Source: an uncultured Chitinophaga sp.
Lineage (GTDB): Bacteria; Bacteroidota; Bacteroidia; Chitinophagales; LD1
Length of the DNA stretch: 64,000 bases
Direction of reading: 5' to 3'
Assembly: GCA_964631835.1 (NCBI GenBank)
Contig: CAZWAD010000001.1
Coordinates: forward strand, 114,216-178,215
The notes under the pieces are model-generated. The model saw nothing but the letters and a program-made list of their open reading frames with translations. It made no database searches and had not been told where the DNA came from. Shown in pieces: positions 41,384 through 61,022 of this stretch. Position 1 is the first letter of the stretch. Each line of letters opens with the position of its first letter. The position numbers were made by a program, and so were the translations under genes.

Positions 41384-42058
41384 ATGAAAGTTCTCGAAGC
41401 CCGCAAACTGAACAAATACTTCCACGAGCCCGAGGAGTTCCATGTGCTGAAGGATGTTTCCTTTGAAGTAAAGCGCGGTGAGTTTATCTCTGTGGTTGGA
41501 AAGTCCGGCTGCGGAAAGTCCACCTTGCTTTATCTTATTTCCACCCTCGATACCGACTATACCGGTGAGATTTTCATCAATAACCGGAAAGTAACCGGGC
41601 TTACGCAGAACGAGCTGGCGCATTTCCGGAACGAACATATCGGCTTTGTGTTCCAGTTTCATTTCCTGCTCCCCGAATTTTCTGCGTTGAAGAATGTTAT
41701 GCTGCCGGCTGAAAAACTCGGCAAGTACTCTAAAAGCGAAATCGAGGACCGCGCCTATGAAAAACTCAGGTGGCTCGATATGGATAAGTTTGCGCTGAAA
41801 CTGTCGAGTAAATTATCGGGCGGGCAGCAGCAGCGCGTGGCTATTGCCCGTGCGCTTATCAATGACCCCACCATCATCATGGGCGATGAGCCCACCGGTA
41901 ATCTCGACTCGGTAAACTCCGACCTTGTTTTTGAAATTATGAAAGACCTCTCGAAAAGCCGGGGGCAAACGGTTATATCCGTTACGCACGATACCGATTT
42001 TGCCGCAGCCAGCGACCGGGTAATTGAAATGAAAGACGGAGAAATTATCAGCCAATGA
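41384..42058 (+). CDS. ABC transporter ATP-binding protein (MacB/LolD type)
   Basis: Walker A GKSGCGKST, signature LSGGQQQRVAIARAL, Walker B IIMGDEPTGNLD. Confidence 0.93.
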   Translation: MKVLEARKLNKYFHEPEEFHVLKDVSFEVKRGEFISVVGKSGCGKSTLLYLISTLDTDYTGEIFINNRKVTGLTQNELAHFRNEHIGFVFQFHFLLPEFSALKNVMLPAEKLGKYSKSEIEDRAYEKLRWLDMDKFALKLSSKLSGGQQQRVAIARALINDPTIIMGDEPTGNLDSVNSDLVFEIMKDLSKSRGQTVISVTHDTDFAAASDRVIEMKDGEIISQ

Positions 42059-44448: not shown

Positions 44449-45846
44449 ATGAAAGTTGAACAAATATATACGGGCTGCCTCGCTGAAGCAGCATACTATA
44501 TTGAGTCGGAGGGTGAAGCAGCTATTATAGACCCGCTTCGCGAAACCGCGCCCTACATTAAGCGCGCTGAAAAAGACAATGCTAAAATCAAATACATTTT
44601 CGAAACACACTTCCATGCTGATTTTGTTTCGGGACATGTGGAGCTTTCGCAAAAAACCGGAGCAAAAATTGTTTATGGTCCAAATGCCGAATGTGGCTTT
44701 GATGCCCATATTGCAAAAGACGGGGAGGAGTTTTCAATAGGAAAATTGAAACTTAAGGTTCTGCATACTCCCGGCCATACTCCCGAATCGTCAACCTATC
44801 TTTTGTTTGACGAAAATGGAAAAGAGCATTGTATTTTCACCGGTGACACGCTATTCATTGGTGATGTTGGTCGCCCCGATTTGGCAATTAAGTCTGATGT
44901 TACAGAAAAAGATTTAGCCGGAATGCTTTACGATTCACTGCGCAATAGAATCATGAAATTACCGGATGATGTAATTGTGTACCCCGCTCACGGAGCTGGT
45001 TCACCTTGCGGCAAAAGCATGAGCAGGGAAACTTCCGATACTCTTGGCAATCAGAAGAAATTCAATTACGCGCTTCGCAATGTTTCAAAGGAGGAGTTTA
45101 TCAGGGAAGTAACTACGGGGTTGCTTCCTCCGCCACAATATTTTTCTAAAAATGCCTTGCTCAACAAACACGGTGCGGGAAAATTAGACGAAGTGTATGA
45201 ACAGTCTCTTAAAAAATTTTCTCCGGAAGAATTTGAAGAGGTGGCAGAAAGCGCACATGCTCTTGTGCTGGACACACGCAATGCTGAGGACTTTTCAAAA
45301 GGCTTTATTCCCAATTCCATAAACATCAGTCTCGATGGGCAGTTTGCTATTTGGGTCGGCACTTTAATTCCCGATTTAGGCCAGCCGGTTCTGTTGGTTT
45401 GCGAGGAAGGAAGAGAGCGGGAAACCATTATGCGCTTAGCCCGCGTAGGTTACGACAATACGCTCGGCTATTTGAACAGAGGAATTGCCGCATGGAAAAA
45501 TTCTGGCAGAGAACTCGATTTCATAAAATCCATTTCAGCCAATGAATTCGCCCAAAAATACACCGAAGAGCTAAACATACTTGATGTGCGCAAACCTGGG
45601 GAATATGAGGGCGGGCATGTCGTAAATGCTGAAAACAAACCTCTTGATTTTATCAATGAATGGACAAATGAAGTTTACAGAGGCAAAACATATTTTATTC
45701 ATTGCACCGGTGGTTACCGCTCCATGACAGCCGCCTCCATTTTAAAATCAAGAGGGTTTGAAAATGTAATCAATATATCGGATGGGTTTAATTCTATCTC
45801 ATTAACCGGTATACCAAAAACAAATCTTGTTCACGAAAAACGATAG
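44449..45846 (+). CDS. MBL-fold persulfide-dioxygenase-like domain fused to two rhodanese domains (CstB-like layout)
   Basis: THFHADFVSGH and HTPGHTPES metal sites. Two rhodanese-like segments follow, and the second carries active-site CTGGYRS. Confidence 0.85.
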   Translation: MKVEQIYTGCLAEAAYYIESEGEAAIIDPLRETAPYIKRAEKDNAKIKYIFETHFHADFVSGHVELSQKTGAKIVYGPNAECGFDAHIAKDGEEFSIGKLKLKVLHTPGHTPESSTYLLFDENGKEHCIFTGDTLFIGDVGRPDLAIKSDVTEKDLAGMLYDSLRNRIMKLPDDVIVYPAHGAGSPCGKSMSRETSDTLGNQKKFNYALRNVSKEEFIREVTTGLLPPPQYFSKNALLNKHGAGKLDEVYEQSLKKFSPEEFEEVAESAHALVLDTRNAEDFSKGFIPNSINISLDGQFAIWVGTLIPDLGQPVLLVCEEGRERETIMRLARVGYDNTLGYLNRGIAAWKNSGRELDFIKSISANEFAQKYTEELNILDVRKPGEYEGGHVVNAENKPLDFINEWTNEVYRGKTYFIHCTGGYRSMTAASILKSRGFENVINISDGFNSISLTGIPKTNLVHEKR

Positions 45847-45852
45847 TCAGTT

Positions 45853-46569
45853 ATGAACTTCAGAAATTTTGCAACTCTTCTTTTTCTCAGTCTTTTTATG
45901 TCTTGTAACAGCCAGAACTCATCTGTAAAAAATATTAACCCGGCAGAATTCGAGAAAGGAATCACACAACCAAATGCGCAATTAGTTGATGTGCGAACTC
46001 CAGAAGAATATTCCGAAAAAAGGATTTTAAACTCGCAGAACATTAATATTAATGATGCGCTTTTTGAAAAACACATGAGCCAGCTAGATAAATCAAAACC
46101 GCTTTATGTTTATTGTTTGGTAGGGGGCAGAAGCGGCAGGGCCGCTGATTGGGCGGTGAAAAACGGTTTTAAGGAAGTTTACAATCTGAACGGTGGAATA
46201 TCGGCTTGGATAGGGGAGAAAAAACCAATTGAAACATCGGTTACCGAAGAGAAAACCGCAGGTATGAGTTTCGATGATTATCTCAGCCATATTAAGGCAA
46301 GTAATAAATTAGTAGTGGTTGATTTTAATGCCGTTTGGTGCGGGCCATGCAAAATACTGAAGCCGATTGTGCAGAGGCAGGTGAGAAAAAATTCAGCTTC
46401 GGTTGAGTTGTTTGAAATTGACGTTGACAAAAACCCCAATGTGGCAAACACCATGAACATTCGTTCTATTCCGCTTTTATTGCTATACAAGAACGGAAAA
46501 GAAGTCTGGCGAAGTTTAGGACTGATAGAAGAAGGTGTTCTCGCTGAAAAAATTAAAGAGTTTTCGTAG
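45853..46569 (+). CDS. lipoprotein-signal rhodanese-thioredoxin fusion
   Basis: Lipobox-like LFMSC, rhodanese loop YCLVGGRSGRA, thioredoxin WCGPC. Confidence 0.85.
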   Translation: MNFRNFATLLFLSLFMSCNSQNSSVKNINPAEFEKGITQPNAQLVDVRTPEEYSEKRILNSQNININDALFEKHMSQLDKSKPLYVYCLVGGRSGRAADWAVKNGFKEVYNLNGGISAWIGEKKPIETSVTEEKTAGMSFDDYLSHIKASNKLVVVDFNAVWCGPCKILKPIVQRQVRKNSASVELFEIDVDKNPNVANTMNIRSIPLLLLYKNGKEVWRSLGLIEEGVLAEKIKEFS

Positions 46570-46656
46570 CTGTTTATTTTTACAATAGGGCACAAGCACA
46601 AAGAAATTAAGCCCTGGCTTTTCCCTTGATGTATTTGTGTAACTATTTTCGCACCC

Positions 46657-46926
46657 ATGAAATACTACAAAATTACGGTTCAGGGAAAAGTGCAGGGTGT
46701 TTTCTTTCGCTCCTCAGCCAAGAAAATGGCTGATGCTCTTGCGGTAAAAGGTTTTGTGCGCAACGAACCTAATGGTGATGTATATATTGAAGCAGAAGCC
46801 GATGAGAAAATGCTCGTAAAATTTGTAGAATGGTGCCATCAGGGTCCCGTGAATGCCGAAGTAGCACATGTTTCCATTAAAGAAGGTTTTTTCCAAAACT
46901 TTAAAACGTTTGAAATTATACGGTGA
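46657..46926 (+). CDS. acyP: acylphosphatase
   Basis: VQGKVQGVFFR and GFVRN motifs. 89 aa. Confidence 0.88.
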   Translation: MKYYKITVQGKVQGVFFRSSAKKMADALAVKGFVRNEPNGDVYIEAEADEKMLVKFVEWCHQGPVNAEVAHVSIKEGFFQNFKTFEIIR

Positions 46927-46961
46927 GTAAACATTTTGCTATTTATTTCTACTTTAGCCCT

Positions 46962-47024
46962 ATGTTATTCGTTCAAAACACCTGTTGTTGTCTTTCCCGG
47001 TGGGGTATAGAAGATGTTTTGTAA
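46962..47024 (+). CDS. putative cysteine leader peptide MLFVQNTCCCLSRWGIEDVL
   Basis: A 20-codon ORF with TGT TGT TGT at 46983..46991. It lies 27 nt upstream of an intrinsic terminator and directly upstream of cysE-cysK. Confidence 0.55.
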   Translation: MLFVQNTCCCLSRWGIEDVL

Positions 47025-47050
47025 TAACTGACAAGCGATAAAAACATTTT

Positions 47051-47086
47051 AAAACCCTTCTCTTGACGAAGGGTTTTTTATTTTTT
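47051..47086 (+). terminator. intrinsic terminator (attenuator) upstream of cysE
   Basis: AAAACCCTTC-TCTTGAC-GAAGGGTTTT followed by TTATTTTTT. Confidence 0.8.
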
Positions 47087-47098
47087 AAATTATATAAA

Positions 47099-47905
47099 AT
47101 GCAAAACCCAAAAATAGATTTCAGCACCTTGCCTTCAAGGACGTTTATCTATAAATTTATAGATGAGCTGCTCGACTTCCTTTTTCCCACAGAATCGAAC
47201 CATACTTTCAGGTATGAAGTAGCCGGAGAAAAAGAAGAGCGCCTGAAACATAATCTTCAGGAAATTCTCAAACCGCTGAACGGAAAGCTCAATCCGCCTG
47301 CTCAAGAAATCACCGCAAAGTTTTTTCAATCGCTGTCTTCAGTTTATGACAAGTTGATTTTGGACGCTGAATTCTTTATGAAGTCAGACCCAGCAGCTGA
47401 AAGTGTTGAAGAGGTGATTATTGCTTACCCTGGCTTTTATGCCATTACTGTTTACCGTCTTGCTCATGAACTTTCAAAACTTAATGTGCCGATTATTCCC
47501 CGTGTAATCAGTGAATATGCGCATACTAAAACAGGTATTGACATCCACCCTGGCGCAACCATCGGTACTCCTTTTTTTATTGACCACGGCACCGGTGTCG
47601 TAATCGGGCAAACGACCGTTATCGGCAGCCATGTGAAAATTTATCAGGGCGTAACGCTTGGTGCTCTGGCTGTTAGAAAAGAATCGCAGGGTGCCAAGCG
47701 CCACCCCACGATTGAGGACAGTGTCATTCTCTATGCCGGAAGCTGTATTCTCGGAGGCGAAACGGTTGTGGGACACGACAGCGTAATTGGCGGAAATGTG
47801 TGGCTGACCGAAAGCGTTGCGCCACTGTCTATTGTTTATCACAAAAGTGAAGTCCATATTCGCGACAAATCTGAAATGAATGAAGTCATCGACTTCGTTA
47901 TCTAA
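47099..47905 (+). CDS. cysE: serine O-acetyltransferase
   Basis: Start moved to MQNPKIDF at 47099. Hexapeptide-repeat C-half with GIDIHPGATIG..FFIDHGTGVVIG. Confidence 0.9.
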   Translation: MQNPKIDFSTLPSRTFIYKFIDELLDFLFPTESNHTFRYEVAGEKEERLKHNLQEILKPLNGKLNPPAQEITAKFFQSLSSVYDKLILDAEFFMKSDPAAESVEEVIIAYPGFYAITVYRLAHELSKLNVPIIPRVISEYAHTKTGIDIHPGATIGTPFFIDHGTGVVIGQTTVIGSHVKIYQGVTLGALAVRKESQGAKRHPTIEDSVILYAGSCILGGETVVGHDSVIGGNVWLTESVAPLSIVYHKSEVHIRDKSEMNEVIDFVI

Positions 47906-47932: not shown

Positions 47933-48850
47933 ATGAAAGCAAACAACATCCTTGAAACCATCGGCAACACTCCGCACCTGCGAATCAATAAACTCTTTGA
48001 CAGCAGCCACGAAGTCTGGATTAAACTGGAGCGTGCCAATCCCGGGGGAAGCATTAAGGACCGCATCGCTCTTTCCATGATTGAAGATGCCGAGCAAAAG
48101 GGTTTGCTCAAGCCCGGCAGTGTAATTATTGAACCTACTTCGGGCAACACCGGTATTGGCTTGGCAATGGTGGCGTGTGTAAAAGGCTACAAACTGATTC
48201 TCGTTATGCCAGAATCAATGAGTATAGAAAGAAGAAGACTGATGAAAGCTTATGGCGCCACTTTCGAGCTTACCCCCCGCGAAAAAGGGATGAAGGGCGC
48301 TATAGCCAAAGCCCAGGAACTTGCCGATGCAACCCCCGACTCGTGGATACCTCAGCAGTTTGACAATGCTGCTAACGTGGCAGTGCATATAAAACATACC
48401 GCTCAGGAAATTCTTACCGATTTTCCTGAAGGCATTGATTACCTCATTACGGGAGTTGGAACAGGTGGTCATATTACCGGTGTGGGCAAAGCGCTGAAAG
48501 AAAAGTTTCCTTCTTTAAAAGTATATGCTGTAGAGCCGGCTCTTTCGCCCGTAATAAGCGGTGGTCAGCCTGCTCCGCATCCCATTCAGGGAATTGGTGC
48601 GGGGTTTATTCCCGCCAACCTGGATACGAAGGTGCTTGACGGGGTTATTCAGGTGTCGAAAGAAGAGGCTTTTGATTTCGCCATCCGTGCAGCCAGCCAG
48701 GAAGCCCTCTTTGGCGGAATTTCATCAGGAGCAACCCTCGCTGCAATTGCAAAAAAGATTACCGAAATACCTGCCGGCAAGCGTATACTCGGCTTTAATT
48801 ACGATACCGGTGAACGCTACCTGAGCATAGAGGGGCTTTTCGCCCTTTAA
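47933..48850 (+). CDS. cysK: cysteine synthase A (O-acetylserine sulfhydrylase)
   Basis: [12 protein letters not shown] lysine, [13 protein letters not shown]. Confidence 0.93.
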
Positions 48851-49050: not shown

Positions 49051-49116
49051 ATGAAAATTATCATTTCAACCGGTTGGTGGCATGCTGAAAAAACAGCGGG
49101 CTGCGCAATGCGTTGA
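49051..49116 (+). CDS. putative trp leader peptide MKIIISTGWWHAEKTAGCAMR
   Basis: A 21-codon ORF with tandem TGG TGG at 49075..49080. It is followed by a terminator and then trpE. Confidence 0.65.
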   Translation: MKIIISTGWWHAEKTAGCAMR

Positions 49117-49138
49117 AATGATTGATTATATTTTTTCG

Positions 49139-49173
49139 AAAGCCCGTTGTAGTAACAATGGGCTTTTTCTTTT
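49139..49173 (+). terminator. intrinsic terminator (attenuator) upstream of trpE
   Basis: Stem AAAGCCCGTTG / CAATGGGCTTT with a 6-nt loop, then TTCTTTT. Confidence 0.8.
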
Positions 49174-49186
49174 ACGCTGAAACGAA

Positions 49187-50575
49187 ATGAGATATACCAC
49201 ACATACTTTTCAAATGCTTGCCGATACACACACGCCCGTGGGTATTTACCTGAAGCTGCGCGATGTGTTTCATCAAACGCTGCTGCTGGAAAGCTCCGAT
49301 TATCATGCGGCAGAAAACAGTTTTTCGTTTATCTGCTGCCATGCCGTGGCATCTGTAAAAGTGCTGGAGGGTGCCGTGGAAATTGACGGATACAAAACCG
49401 GCAAGCAGACTGTTTCGTTTGAGCAGAAGCCGCTGTTTGAATCGTTTCAGCAGTTCAGCGATTCGTTTACCGAAACAAACGGCAAGGCCACTATTGCCAA
49501 CGGGCTGTTTGGTTATGTAAGCAGCGATGCGGTGCAGCACTTCGATAATTTTTCGTTCAGGAATGAAGACCGCGAAATTCCTTCGGTGTGGTTTACGTTT
49601 TACCGTTTTGTCATCGCGTTCAACCATTTTAAAGACGAGCTGGTTATTTACGAAAACGTGCCGGAGGGCGAAACTGGCGAAACGGAAAAAATAATTACGC
49701 TCATCCGCAATAAGAACATGGCGGTGTATCCGTTTGAAACCGCGGGCGAAGAAAAAACCAATGTGACCGACCCGGAATTTATTTCGATGATTGAACGCGC
49801 CATAGGGCATTGTTACCGTGGCGATGTTTTTCAGCTGGTGCTGTCGCGCAGGTTTATGCAAAAATTTACGGGCGATGATATGAATGTGTATCGCACGCTG
49901 CGCTCGATAAATCCTTCGCCCTACCTGTTTTATTTCGATTACGGCAACTTCCGGATTTTTGGTTCTTCGCCCGAAGCGCAGCTGGTGGTGAAGGGCAACA
50001 AAGCGAAAATCAATCCCATTGCAGGAACTTTTAAGCGCACCGGTGATGATGAGCAGGATAAAATGCTGGCGGAAAAACTGGCGAAGGATGAAAAAGAAAA
50101 TGCCGAGCATGTGATGCTGGTGGATTTGGCGCGCAACGATTTATCGAAGCATTGCAGCGCGGTGGAGGTGAAGCATTACAAGCAGATTCATTTTTACTCG
50201 CACGTGATTCATTTGGTGAGCGAAGTGATGGGAACGCTCGATGGCAAACACAATGCTTTGCAGTTACTGGCAGATTCGTTTCCTGCGGGCACACTTTCGG
50301 GTGCGCCCAAGCACGAAGCGATTGAGCTGATTCGCAAATACGAAAATATGCTGCGCGGATTTTATGGCGGGTGTATCGGCTTTATCGGTTTCAATGGCGA
50401 TATCAATACTGCTATTACCATCCGCTCGTTTTTGAGCAAGAACAACACGCTGCATTACCAGGCGGGCGCGGGAGTGGTGGCGGCATCGAATCCGCAAAGC
50501 GAGCTGGAGGAAGTTCACAACAAGCTGCGCGCCTTACGCACAGCCATTGAGCAGGCAAAACAAATGAGTGTATGA
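49187..50575 (+). CDS. trpE: anthranilate synthase component I
   Basis: LLESS, SPE..L, GAPK and a chorismate-binding C-half. Confidence 0.95.
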   Translation: MRYTTHTFQMLADTHTPVGIYLKLRDVFHQTLLLESSDYHAAENSFSFICCHAVASVKVLEGAVEIDGYKTGKQTVSFEQKPLFESFQQFSDSFTETNGKATIANGLFGYVSSDAVQHFDNFSFRNEDREIPSVWFTFYRFVIAFNHFKDELVIYENVPEGETGETEKIITLIRNKNMAVYPFETAGEEKTNVTDPEFISMIERAIGHCYRGDVFQLVLSRRFMQKFTGDDMNVYRTLRSINPSPYLFYFDYGNFRIFGSSPEAQLVVKGNKAKINPIAGTFKRTGDDEQDKMLAEKLAKDEKENAEHVMLVDLARNDLSKHCSAVEVKHYKQIHFYSHVIHLVSEVMGTLDGKHNALQLLADSFPAGTLSGAPKHEAIELIRKYENMLRGFYGGCIGFIGFNGDINTAITIRSFLSKNNTLHYQAGAGVVAASNPQSELEEVHNKLRALRTAIEQAKQMSV

Positions 50576-54858: not shown

Positions 54859-54920
54859 AAAAAGAATTGGTGCCTGTCCCGAACTTGTTTCGGGAGCGCG
54901 TCCCGCACAAAGCAGCGGGT

Positions 54921-55060
54921 CGGGCTTTACGCTACAATCTTTTTTGCTGCTGCATTTTGTCCCCCTCTGCATAGCCTGTGTTTAGCTGAGGGGGTGCCCG
55001 TTTCGGGCGGGGGAGGTTTTTTCATCCGCAGCAAAAAAGGATTTCCGCTTCAATCCCTCG
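54921..55060. repeat. composite palindromic element downstream of trpB
   Basis: The imperfect arms share a perfect core, TTTTTTGCTGC (54940..54950) against GCAGCAAAAAA (55028..55038). Inner hairpins are CCCCCTC...GAGGGGG and GCCCG-TTT-CGGGC. Confidence 0.7.
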
Positions 55061-55107
55061 CGCAAACAGCCGCCTTTCACTCACAAGTTTGCCCTTGCGA
55101 GGTCGGC

Positions 55108-59789: not shown

Positions 59790-61022
59790 TTACATTTTCA
59801 GCTTCCTCATTTTCGGAGCAAACACAAACGTTGCAACTACCACCATAAGGGTCATACATCCTCCGAAAATGACAGACGGCACCGTGCCCATAATTTTTGC
59901 TGCCAGTCCACTTTCAAAGGCACCAATTTCGTTCGATGAAGAAATAAAGATTTGATTGATGGCGCTTACCCGCCCGCGCATGTTATCGGGCGTCATGGTT
60001 TGCAGAATGGTTTGGCGGATAACCACGCTTATATTATCGAAAGCACCGGTGAGGAAAAGCATGGCGAAAGAAAGAAGAAAGCTTTCTGAAACCGCAAAGG
60101 CAATAGTGGCGATTCCAAAACCCGTAACAGCTATTAATAAATTTCTTCCGGCAAATCGAACCGGTGGATTATATGCCAGGAACAAACCCATGATTACGCT
60201 TCCCAGAAAAGGAGCTGAGCGAAGAAACCCCAACCCCTGGGGGCCAATGTGAAGAATATCTTTAGCATATACCGGCAGAAGCGCTACGGCTCCGCCAAAT
60301 AACACGGCAAACAAATCAAGCGAAATAGCCGAAAGCATGACTTGCGTTTTAAAAACAAAGCGCAGGCCTGCCGTGAGCGATTCGAAAAGCGTTTCGTTCT
60401 TTTCTTTAGGAGGGGTGGGTTTTACCGGCACACGGAGAAATATGAAAAACGAAGCCAGCATAAGCACAACCGCAATTGAAAAGGAAATTCGGATATTGGT
60501 ATAGCCGTATATTATTCCGCCCAAAGCAGGGCCGGCTACGGCTGCTGTTTGCCATGTGTTGCTGCCCCAGGTAGCTCCGTTGGCATACAACTCCCTCGGA
60601 AGCAGTTGTGGGAAAATACTTTGAAATGCGGGAGCCATAAATCCGCGGACAATTCCGCTTAAGCCAATGATGAAGTATATCGGCATCGGGCCATAGGTTT
60701 TTAAAAACTGTGCATCGCCCGCCAGAAAAAAACCTATGGCGGCAAAGCAGAGGGTTATTCCTATGATTGTGCTCCGGGCTATTTTGTACCTATTAAAAGT
60801 ATCTGCTGCGTGTCCGCTGTAAAGCGAGGTAAGGATAAACGGAAGCGCTTCGCTTAATCCAATCAGCCCGAGAGCAAGTTTGTCGTTAGTGATTTCATAA
60901 ATTTTCCAGCCGACAATCGTTTCTGCCATTTGCACAGCAAACGTGAGCGTAAACCTGGAAAGCTGAAAATTTCGGAAAGCGGCAATTCGCAATGCCGCGT
61001 ATGCGTCCGGCTTGTCTTTCAT
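59790..61022 (-). CDS. MFS transporter
   Basis: Start moved to MKDKPDAY at 61022. A 12-TM layout typical of the MFS_3/EntS-like group. Confidence 0.85.
   Translation of the reverse strand: MKDKPDAYAALRIAAFRNFQLSRFTLTFAVQMAETIVGWKIYEITNDKLALGLIGLSEALPFILTSLYSGHAADTFNRYKIARSTIIGITLCFAAIGFFLAGDAQFLKTYGPMPIYFIIGLSGIVRGFMAPAFQSIFPQLLPRELYANGATWGSNTWQTAAVAGPALGGIIYGYTNIRISFSIAVVLMLASFFIFLRVPVKPTPPKEKNETLFESLTAGLRFVFKTQVMLSAISLDLFAVLFGGAVALLPVYAKDILHIGPQGLGFLRSAPFLGSVIMGLFLAYNPPVRFAGRNLLIAVTGFGIATIAFAVSESFLLSFAMLFLTGAFDNISVVIRQTILQTMTPDNMRGRVSAINQIFISSSNEIGAFESGLAAKIMGTVPSVIFGGCMTLMVVVATFVFAPKMRKLKM

Follow-up and report, generated by a model that had tools for sequence, protein, structure and literature searches.

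A candidate cysteine-sensing leader-peptide attenuator ahead of cysE-cysK in Bacteroidota

A 64,000-nucleotide stretch of DNA from an uncultured Chitinophaga sp. (contig CAZWAD010000001.1, positions 114,216 to 178,215; hereafter the window) contains, immediately 5' of the cysteine-synthesis genes cysE and cysK, a short open reading frame (ORF) with three consecutive cysteine codons that is followed by an intrinsic terminator. We consider it likely that transcription of the cysE-cysK operon is controlled here by classical ribosome-mediated (leader-peptide) attenuation, with cysteinyl-tRNA(Cys) as the signal. We computed the sequence features and how well they are conserved, the complementarities and the switching in silico, and from these infer a transcription start site (TSS), translation of the leader, ribosome stalling and regulated termination. 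Related leaders, similar in layout and different in sequence, were found ahead of cysE in several other lineages of Bacteroidota.

Results

A cysteine-codon ORF and an intrinsic terminator precede cysE

The leader ORF (46962..47024, + strand, as are all window features below unless stated otherwise) begins with an ATG at 46962, has 20 codons and ends with a TAA stop at 47022-47024. It encodes the peptide MLFVQNTCCCLSRWGIEDVL, in which codons 8-10 are the tandem Cys codons TGT TGT TGT (46983..46991), the proposed site of sensing, where a ribosome would stall when Cys-tRNA(Cys) is scarce. An intrinsic terminator (regions 3:4, 47051..47086) follows the ORF. Its 10-bp stem is formed by AAAACCCTTC (47051-47060) and GAAGGGTTTT (47068-47077) around a 7-nt loop, TCTTGAC, and is succeeded by UUAUUUUUU, with TTATTTTTT running to 47086. 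A terminator scan reports this hairpin with its 10 pairs and T run, folding gives it an energy of ~ -12 kcal/mol, and it ends 21 nt 5' of the cysE AUG, which it leaves uncovered. An earlier sequence-only reading of the window had placed the ORF, the Cys codons, the terminator and the cysE ATG (47099) at these positions, and each coordinate was correct when the sequence was re-read.

The first gene under the proposed control, cysE (47099..47905), encodes a serine O-acetyltransferase of 268 aa. The second, cysK (47933..48850), encodes cysteine synthase A (TIGR01139, 401.7 bits, above the cut-off). In a profile search the cysE protein matched the cysE and EpsC serine O-acetyltransferase models with scores just below their cut-offs; its homologues are annotated as serine O-acetyltransferase and carry names from Bacteroidota or Chitinophagales. 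An exact look-up returned no identical protein on record, and identity among the homologues falls fast to 83%. The order cysE then cysK on one strand is found in 130 of the loci examined.

Only three ATG-started short ORFs (5-60 aa) with three consecutive Cys residues exist on both strands of the 64 kb window, so that one is unlikely to fall by chance in the 172-nt spacer before cysE, where ~0.004 would be expected. The second of the three, at 60554, was set aside as it appears to lie inside a long coding region; the third is at 41755.

The leader is predicted to fold into two competing structures

Three segments upstream of the terminator 3' arm would give this leader the usual parts of an attenuator. 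Region 1, CCC (46996..46998), pairs with GGG (47003-47005) in free RNA and would lie under a ribosome that stalls at the Cys codons, which would open the small hairpin; this 1:2 pairing is present in both the minimum-energy and the centroid folds of the window. Comparable CCUU/AAGG hairpins were seen by eye in five related loci (L084, L086, L171, L175 and L176), and this is the least-tested part of the model. Region 2, the antiterminator 5' strand (47000..47020), supplies an outer helix from G47000 and GGGGU (47002-47006) and an inner helix from AAGAUGUUUU (47011-47020). Region 3, the antiterminator 3' strand (47041..47060), supplies AAAACAUUUU (47041-47050) for the inner helix, while its ACCCU (47054-47058) and C47060 overlap the 5' arm of the terminator.

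We folded the window leader with the segments that a ribosome would occupy masked. The antiterminator forms with the ribosome stalled at any of the three Cys codons, loses its outer helix when the stall is moved one codon later, and does not form once the ribosome has reached the stop codon. With the A site on the second Cys codon and the terminator 3' arm not yet made, all 19 leaders folded this way formed an antiterminator (-9 to -32 kcal/mol), whereas with the ribosome at the stop codon the 19 leaders had almost no fold (0 to -3.5 kcal/mol) and the terminator 5' arm was free. In free RNA, the terminator was part of the minimum-energy fold in 21/21 leaders. The sequence-only reading had anticipated this contrast between a ribosome held at the Cys codons and one at the stop.

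These parts suggest how the element could work. From a -7 box at 46950-46957, transcription would begin on or beside the A of the leader AUG. With cysteine plentiful, the ribosome would pass the three Cys codons, reach the stop codon at 47022 and cover region 2 (47000-47020); the terminator (47051-47077) and its U run would then form, and the polymerase would halt 12-20 nt 5' of cysE. With Cys-tRNA(Cys) scarce, the ribosome would stall with a Cys codon in the A site and cover region 1 (46996-46998), leaving region 2 free to pair with 47041-47060 through GGGGU/ACCCU and AAGAUGUUUU/AAAACAUUUU. This 2:3 pairing would occupy the 5' arm of the terminator while its 3' arm has yet to be transcribed, resulting in read-through into cysE-cysK.

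Close relatives keep the ORF, the Cys run and both structures

We compared the DNA around cysE in 11 distinct relatives whose cysE is 65-83% identical to that of the window. Every one of them (11/11) has a short ORF with a Cys run 111-150 nt 5' of the annotated cysE start, and each ORF is followed, ~20 nt 5' of cysE, by a hairpin (A)ACCCTTCG...CGAAGGGTT and a T run. The proposal in the sequence-only reading that a Cys-codon leader and a terminator form a classical attenuator here gains support from this set, in which the ORF, its in-frame Cys run and the terminator are all retained, and from distant Bacteroidota, in which different sequences recur in the same arrangement (see below). The close relatives' leaders have four or five Cys codons, three to five of them consecutive, while leaders across all relatives have three to six. 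The Cys run is the sole conserved feature of the peptides, which are MLFLQNICCCCCSLCKGR in L081, MLFIKHTDCCCCCFGHKG in L083, MKFIQIICCCCCSPCKGE in L084, MIRLQNMRCCCSPYRGC in L086, MLFIKHVCCCCCITAEGTKYVL in L168, MLFFEYTCCCCCKTPKGG in L170, MLFTQSIFCCCCCSILKGN in L171, MTITKHACCCCSLIGAVYLFCD in L173, MAVQKAFYDCCCPPL in L175, MKLYSASICCVCCKSLRV in L176 and MPFFVHACCCCCANLAKGTK in L178.

Because Cys-rich small peptides exist and the ORF is conserved as an ORF, its product could itself be functional, as a metal-binding or redox micropeptide or the precursor of a modified peptide, with its own terminator and co-located with the cysteine genes. Neither the sequence nor the length of the peptide is conserved outside the Cys run, however, even among close relatives, and genes for modification or export were not found nearby in the close-relative loci. 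Such an arrangement would also leave cysE, only 21 nt after the terminator, without an evident promoter. We regard a micropeptide as very improbable.

The genes 5' of the leader bear on a different possibility, namely that the hairpin is the terminator of the upstream gene and the Cys-run ORF a chance frame. The neighbor in the window is an acylphosphatase gene (46657-46926), co-directional with cysE, and the terminator scan of the window found no other terminator between its stop codon and the leader, as coincidence would predict. Among the 11 close relatives, only L083 and L170 have an acylphosphatase gene as upstream neighbor; in L081, L084, L086 and L175 the neighbor is divergent, in L173 it is rplL with its own terminator, and in L178 a tRNA. 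Since the hairpin is kept whatever gene lies 5', it goes with cysE, not with its upstream neighbor. As ORF and hairpin both persist next to divergent or separately terminated upstream genes, and as the ORF count for the window and the enrichment given below argue against chance, coincidence is hardly credible, and we return to attenuation as the preferred reading.

The two alternative structures are visible in an alignment of ten close relatives. The terminator stem is paired in 98.7% of alignment cells. When the terminator 3' arm was omitted, RNAalifold returned a single alternative structure in which AAGGG near the ORF 3' end (GGGGU in the window) pairs with CCCUU of the terminator 5' arm, with an inner helix of UAUGUUUUG and CAAAAUAUU. 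The cells of this alternative structure are paired in 91% of cases, compared with 41-65% when the partners are slid against each other. Of two pairings put forward in the sequence-only reading, that of ATGTTTT (47014-47020) with its complement AAAACAT (47041-47047) proved real and conserved; it corresponds to the antiterminator inner helix in RNAalifold, the alignment and the masked folds. The other, which assigned GAAG (47010-47013) to the left arm of the terminator, has to be replaced by GGGGU (47002-47006) with ACCCU (AAGGG with CCCUU in relatives), which is the conserved register.

Two further observations were made in these loci. In L176 (1490-1532), the called cysE start is an ATG that falls within the attenuator terminator (GGCCCTTCAT-CAC-ATGAAGGGCC), in its 3' arm, and alignment with other cysE genes puts the start at the ATG at 1530; gene-start calls can thus be misled where an attenuator is unannotated. 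In L084 (2871-3236) and L168 (1193-1558), a 121-aa gene matching PF05635, the 23S rRNA intervening-sequence protein family, lies between cysE and cysK.

The leader mRNA is probably leaderless

In 10 of 10 close relatives examined, a TAnnTT(T/A)G motif lies 5' of the leader ATG, its end separated from the ATG by exactly 4 nt. The -7-like box has the same position in the window (46950-46962) and in L081, L083, L084, L086, L168, L170, L171, L173 and L175, and a TTG is found 17-19 nt upstream of it in five of the ten close relatives. In the window, the putative sigma-A -7 box is TACTTTAG (46950..46957; consensus TAnnTTTG), which predicts a TSS at or next to A46962. In Flavobacterium psychrophilum the sigma-A box TAnnTTTG is located at -12 to -5, and 5.5% of mRNAs are leaderless (PMC9723704). 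A box 4 nt before the AUG, combined with the F. psychrophilum spacing, would place the TSS on the A of the leader AUG, suggesting that the leader mRNA is probably leaderless, with transcription starting at or next to that A. A sigma-70 promoter scan of the window is not informative for Bacteroidota. An alternative GTG start at 46923, which would give a 33-aa ORF overlapping the acylphosphatase stop codon (GTGA), was rejected, as only the ATG is common to relatives with different upstream genes.

Cysteine-codon leaders recur in distant Bacteroidota

We then looked beyond the close relatives, in 80 cysE loci (one genome per species) and in 76 metagenome cysE loci; both samples were drawn from among the matches listed, and in both cysE is at most 58% identical to that of the window. 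Short ORFs with Cys runs were found 5' of cysE in Chitinophagaceae (L001), Bacteroidales (L008, L030), unclassified Bacteroidetes (L017), Ancylomarina (L018), Lewinellaceae (L020), Saprospiraceae (L032), Flavobacterium (L050, L055) and Tenuifilaceae (L052). None of the ~21 loci from other phyla in the 80-locus sample, among the matches listed, had this leader layout. Counting ORFs with at least three Cys within five residues, the 350 nt 5' of cysE hold 13 where 1.35 are expected, ~10-fold denser than the rest of the same 80 loci (P ~2e-9).

The distant leaders L008, L017, L020, L030, L032, L050, L052, L055 and L090 have terminators that differ in sequence. Each has a segment, located after the Cys run and at most ~15 nt beyond the stop codon, that complements the 5' arm of its own terminator; L032 (CGGAAAAGGG/CCCUUUUCCG) and L055 (GAAGAGU/ACUCUUC) are examples. 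An energy-based test of this complementarity, with 1000 shuffles per leader, gave a Fisher combined p of ~2e-8 for 10 independent lineages and ~6e-9 for all 19 leaders; L171 and L173 were entered at p = 1, as the wrong hairpin had been picked in them. A count of the terminator-arm nucleotides paired upstream did not separate real from shuffled leaders, whereas the energy-based test did. The geometry is also shared. Region 2 begins 12-31 nt past the first Cys codon (in L090, 42 nt) and ends no more than ~20 nt from the stop codon, with the terminator lying 17-36 nt before cysE or cysK in most leaders. L001 and L018 have Cys leaders without a convincing terminator.

A covariance model built from the close clade (R1) recovers L052, L017, L030 and L008 at E < 0.002. 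R1 also finds a Cys leader between cysE and cysK in L109 (2393-2487), where MFRLSVSICCCCLLRGGAVHD and a terminator are followed by the cysK ATG, and a Cys-run leader with a terminator downstream of cysE, before an unknown gene, in L098 (1453-1612; MKKLFIKYQANTSMCTCCCCMRFNTEMDR). These positions suggest that the element is not tied to cysE alone. The short ORF MFSFNPVSCCCN in L015 (1789-1828) was not accepted as a member: it lies 5' of a RuvB-like gene, ~1.1 kb before cysE, with no obvious terminator, and may be due to chance or be a different kind of Cys leader.

The Cys tract might function as RNA, with an RNA-binding protein or a small molecule driving the switch at a (UGY)n tract and the ORF being incidental; UGY repeats are, after all, also conserved as RNA sequence. 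The reading frame argues otherwise. For runs of at least three TGY 5' of cysE, a stop-free in-frame ATG precedes the run in the Cys frame in 21/23 cases, compared with 5 and 5 in the other two frames. Both Cys codons are used in these runs (TGT 71, TGC 23) which, with the ATG in the Cys frame, points to a constraint that acts on Cys codons as translated rather than on an RNA motif. The stop codon is consistently near region 2, a Trp-codon leader of the same layout lies nearby in the window, and neither a complex conserved structure nor an Rfam family was found in the leaders. In the window leader no Rfam family reached its threshold, whether the region or the whole window was scanned, the best leader family being Phe_leader with 20-24 bits (best hit 23.6) against a threshold of 55, and the leaders of 20 related loci gave no Rfam matches. 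A switch of this kind is therefore quite improbable, and ribosome-mediated attenuation remains our preferred explanation.

Observations that weigh against attenuation at cysE

A number of observations do not favor the attenuator. In the window, the antiterminator (-13.3 kcal/mol) is weaker than the terminator plus the inner hairpin (-18.3 kcal/mol), so it must act by forming first, as a kinetic trap. The trp attenuator of E. coli is similar in this respect: its terminator is likewise the more stable structure and its antiterminator likewise works kinetically. Taken alone, the window antiterminator is no better than shuffles, with p = 0.25 in the energy test and p = 0.62 by the count of paired nucleotides. 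Covariation is low within the close clade because its sequences are too similar: both sides have changed in one of 12 pairs (a G-C that is A-U or G-U elsewhere), and shuffles score equally; support for the alternative helices comes from the unrelated lineages, each of which matches its own terminator. The window also lacks a -33 TTG at the expected spacing, and transcripts of the acylphosphatase gene could run into the leader as well. Finally, the leader is not universal: among the matches listed, ~10 of the ~59 Bacteroidota loci sampled from genomes and 3 of the 76 cysE loci sampled from metagenomes have it.

Some of the same evidence touches on whether termination is the step controlled. The Cys leader ORF could sense cysteine and yet act on cysE translation or mRNA stability, through re-initiation or structure around its start, much like the mycobacterial polycysteine short ORFs, and the only polycysteine leader studied experimentally hides a ribosome-binding site, with no termination involved (bioRxiv 10.1101/834739). 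The terminator state of the window, which is thermodynamically favored even with a stalled ribosome, and the absence of a convincing terminator from the Cys leaders of L001 and L018 fit this possibility. In nearly all members, however, a GC-rich hairpin is followed immediately by a U run, ends 17-36 nt before the start codon in most and leaves the start uncovered, and the complementary segment is specific to the terminator 5' arm. Bacteroidota, as far as we know, do not rely on Shine-Dalgarno-based initiation, so there would be no such site to hide. Control of translation or stability is for these reasons unlikely, and regulated termination is the reading that we carry forward.

A Trp leader of the same design and other features of the window

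About 2 kb downstream, before trpE, the window contains a leader of the same design (49051-49190), with an ORF MKIIISTGWWHAEKTAGCAMR that has tandem Trp codons. In this leader, CAGCGGGCT (~49096-49104) complements AGCCCGTTG, the 5' arm of the terminator; the terminator itself (49138-49167) is followed by a T run, and the trpE ATG is at 49187. It scores 20.5 bits with the Rfam Trp_leader model, against a threshold of 41, and 24 bits with R1. The presence of this Trp leader near cysE-cysK suggests that the organism uses this attenuation mechanism.

Upstream of the Cys leader, three co-directional genes (44449-46926) encode an MBL-fold/rhodanese protein, a rhodanese-thioredoxin fusion and the acylphosphatase; L170 has the same rhodanese-thioredoxin and acylphosphatase neighbors. 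A Flavo-1 RNA is found at 54914-55068 on the - strand, with 57.2 bits against an Rfam threshold of 42, which fits a Bacteroidota origin.

Discussion

The proposed element has the architecture of the enterobacterial attenuators (trpL, hisL, pheL, leuL, thrL and ilvL; Rfam Trp_leader RF00513 and Phe_leader RF01859). It shares with them a short leader ORF in which the pathway's own amino acid has tandem codons, the four-region logic (1:2, 2:3 antiterminator, 3:4 terminator), and an intrinsic terminator located just 5' of the first structural gene and more stable than the antiterminator. In contrast, cysteine would be the amino acid sensed here, the hosts are Bacteroidota, no similarity to the enterobacterial leaders exists in sequence or model, and the leader ORF is predicted to be leaderless, while theirs are Shine-Dalgarno-led.

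Leaders with Cys codons have been reported in other phyla. They were predicted earlier in Actinobacteria (PMC1262725), and in M. smegmatis the leaderless polycysteine short ORFs have been found by experiment to be cysteine-responsive attenuators that act on translation (Canestrari et al., bioRxiv 10.1101/834739). The mycobacterial ORFs, the 'Cys ribulon', resemble those described here in that cysteine-metabolism operons begin, at their 5' end, with a short ORF containing Cys-codon runs, and stalling on low Cys-tRNA is proposed for both; leaderless translation has been shown there and is predicted here. They differ in that a canonical terminator/antiterminator pair is conserved in the present leaders, and the phyla are unrelated and the sequences non-homologous. 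In Deinococcus deserti, a leaderless 10-aa leader with two Cys precedes cysS (PMC4007540), and the uORFC-8-2 motif of Rhodobacterales, also before cysS, has two Cys codons and a terminator-like stem with a U run, and has been read as ribosome-mediated attenuation (PMC8632094). A short upstream ORF with tandem Cys codons is thus common to these two systems and ours, but their target is the tRNA synthetase gene cysS and they have two Cys codons, whereas the leaders described here precede cysE and cysK and have three to six. The sequence-only reading had known of no described Cys-codon leader peptide. That statement does not hold in general, given the four reports above, and stands only for this phylum and gene context.

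Within Bacteroidota, leader-peptide attenuation has been reported for ilvE and RNA-level control for the trp operon of F. psychrophilum (PMC9723704); no Cys leader appears in that paper or its supplements. The F. psychrophilum trp and ilvE leaders and the Trp leader of the window (49051-49167) share with the Cys leader the phylum and the layout, that is, a short ORF, complementarity to the terminator 5' arm and a terminator ~20 nt before the gene, and the window Trp leader also shares the genome. The regulatory codons and the operon are different. Full-text literature searches turned up no account of a Cys leader from this phylum or ahead of cysE-cysK; attenuator surveys covering Bacteroidetes (Lopatovskaya et al. 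2010, Vitreschak et al. 2004) may contain an earlier mention. The Bacteroidota cysE-cysK Cys leader therefore appears to be new, while its mechanism is a textbook one and Cys-sensing leaders are known elsewhere.

How far this extends is less certain than the assignment at the window itself. We lean toward the view that these leaders form an undescribed, probably leaderless Cys-codon leader family in several orders of Bacteroidota, with a full terminator/antiterminator switch on cysE and cysK. On this view, held with the same reserve, the family would be the first termination-type cysteine attenuator for cysteine biosynthesis genes, with an origin separate from that of the actinobacterial polycysteine short ORFs; for this phylum, no cis-regulatory system of cysteine synthesis would have been proposed before it. 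To our knowledge, the regulation of cysteine synthesis in Bacteroidota is poorly described, and we found no regulator of these genes in the literature.

If the proposed mechanism is correct, the ribosome itself would read the cysteine supply in many lineages of Bacteroidota. This would fill a gap, as cysteine is absent from the textbook list of terminator-type attenuators of biosynthetic operons. The leader is also of concern for annotation, since it is unannotated, has no Rfam model and, in L176, lies behind a wrong cysE start call. More broadly, a leaderless polycysteine sensor ORF would have arisen in Actinobacteria, Deinococcus and Bacteroidota, which suggests convergence on the same way of sensing cysteine.

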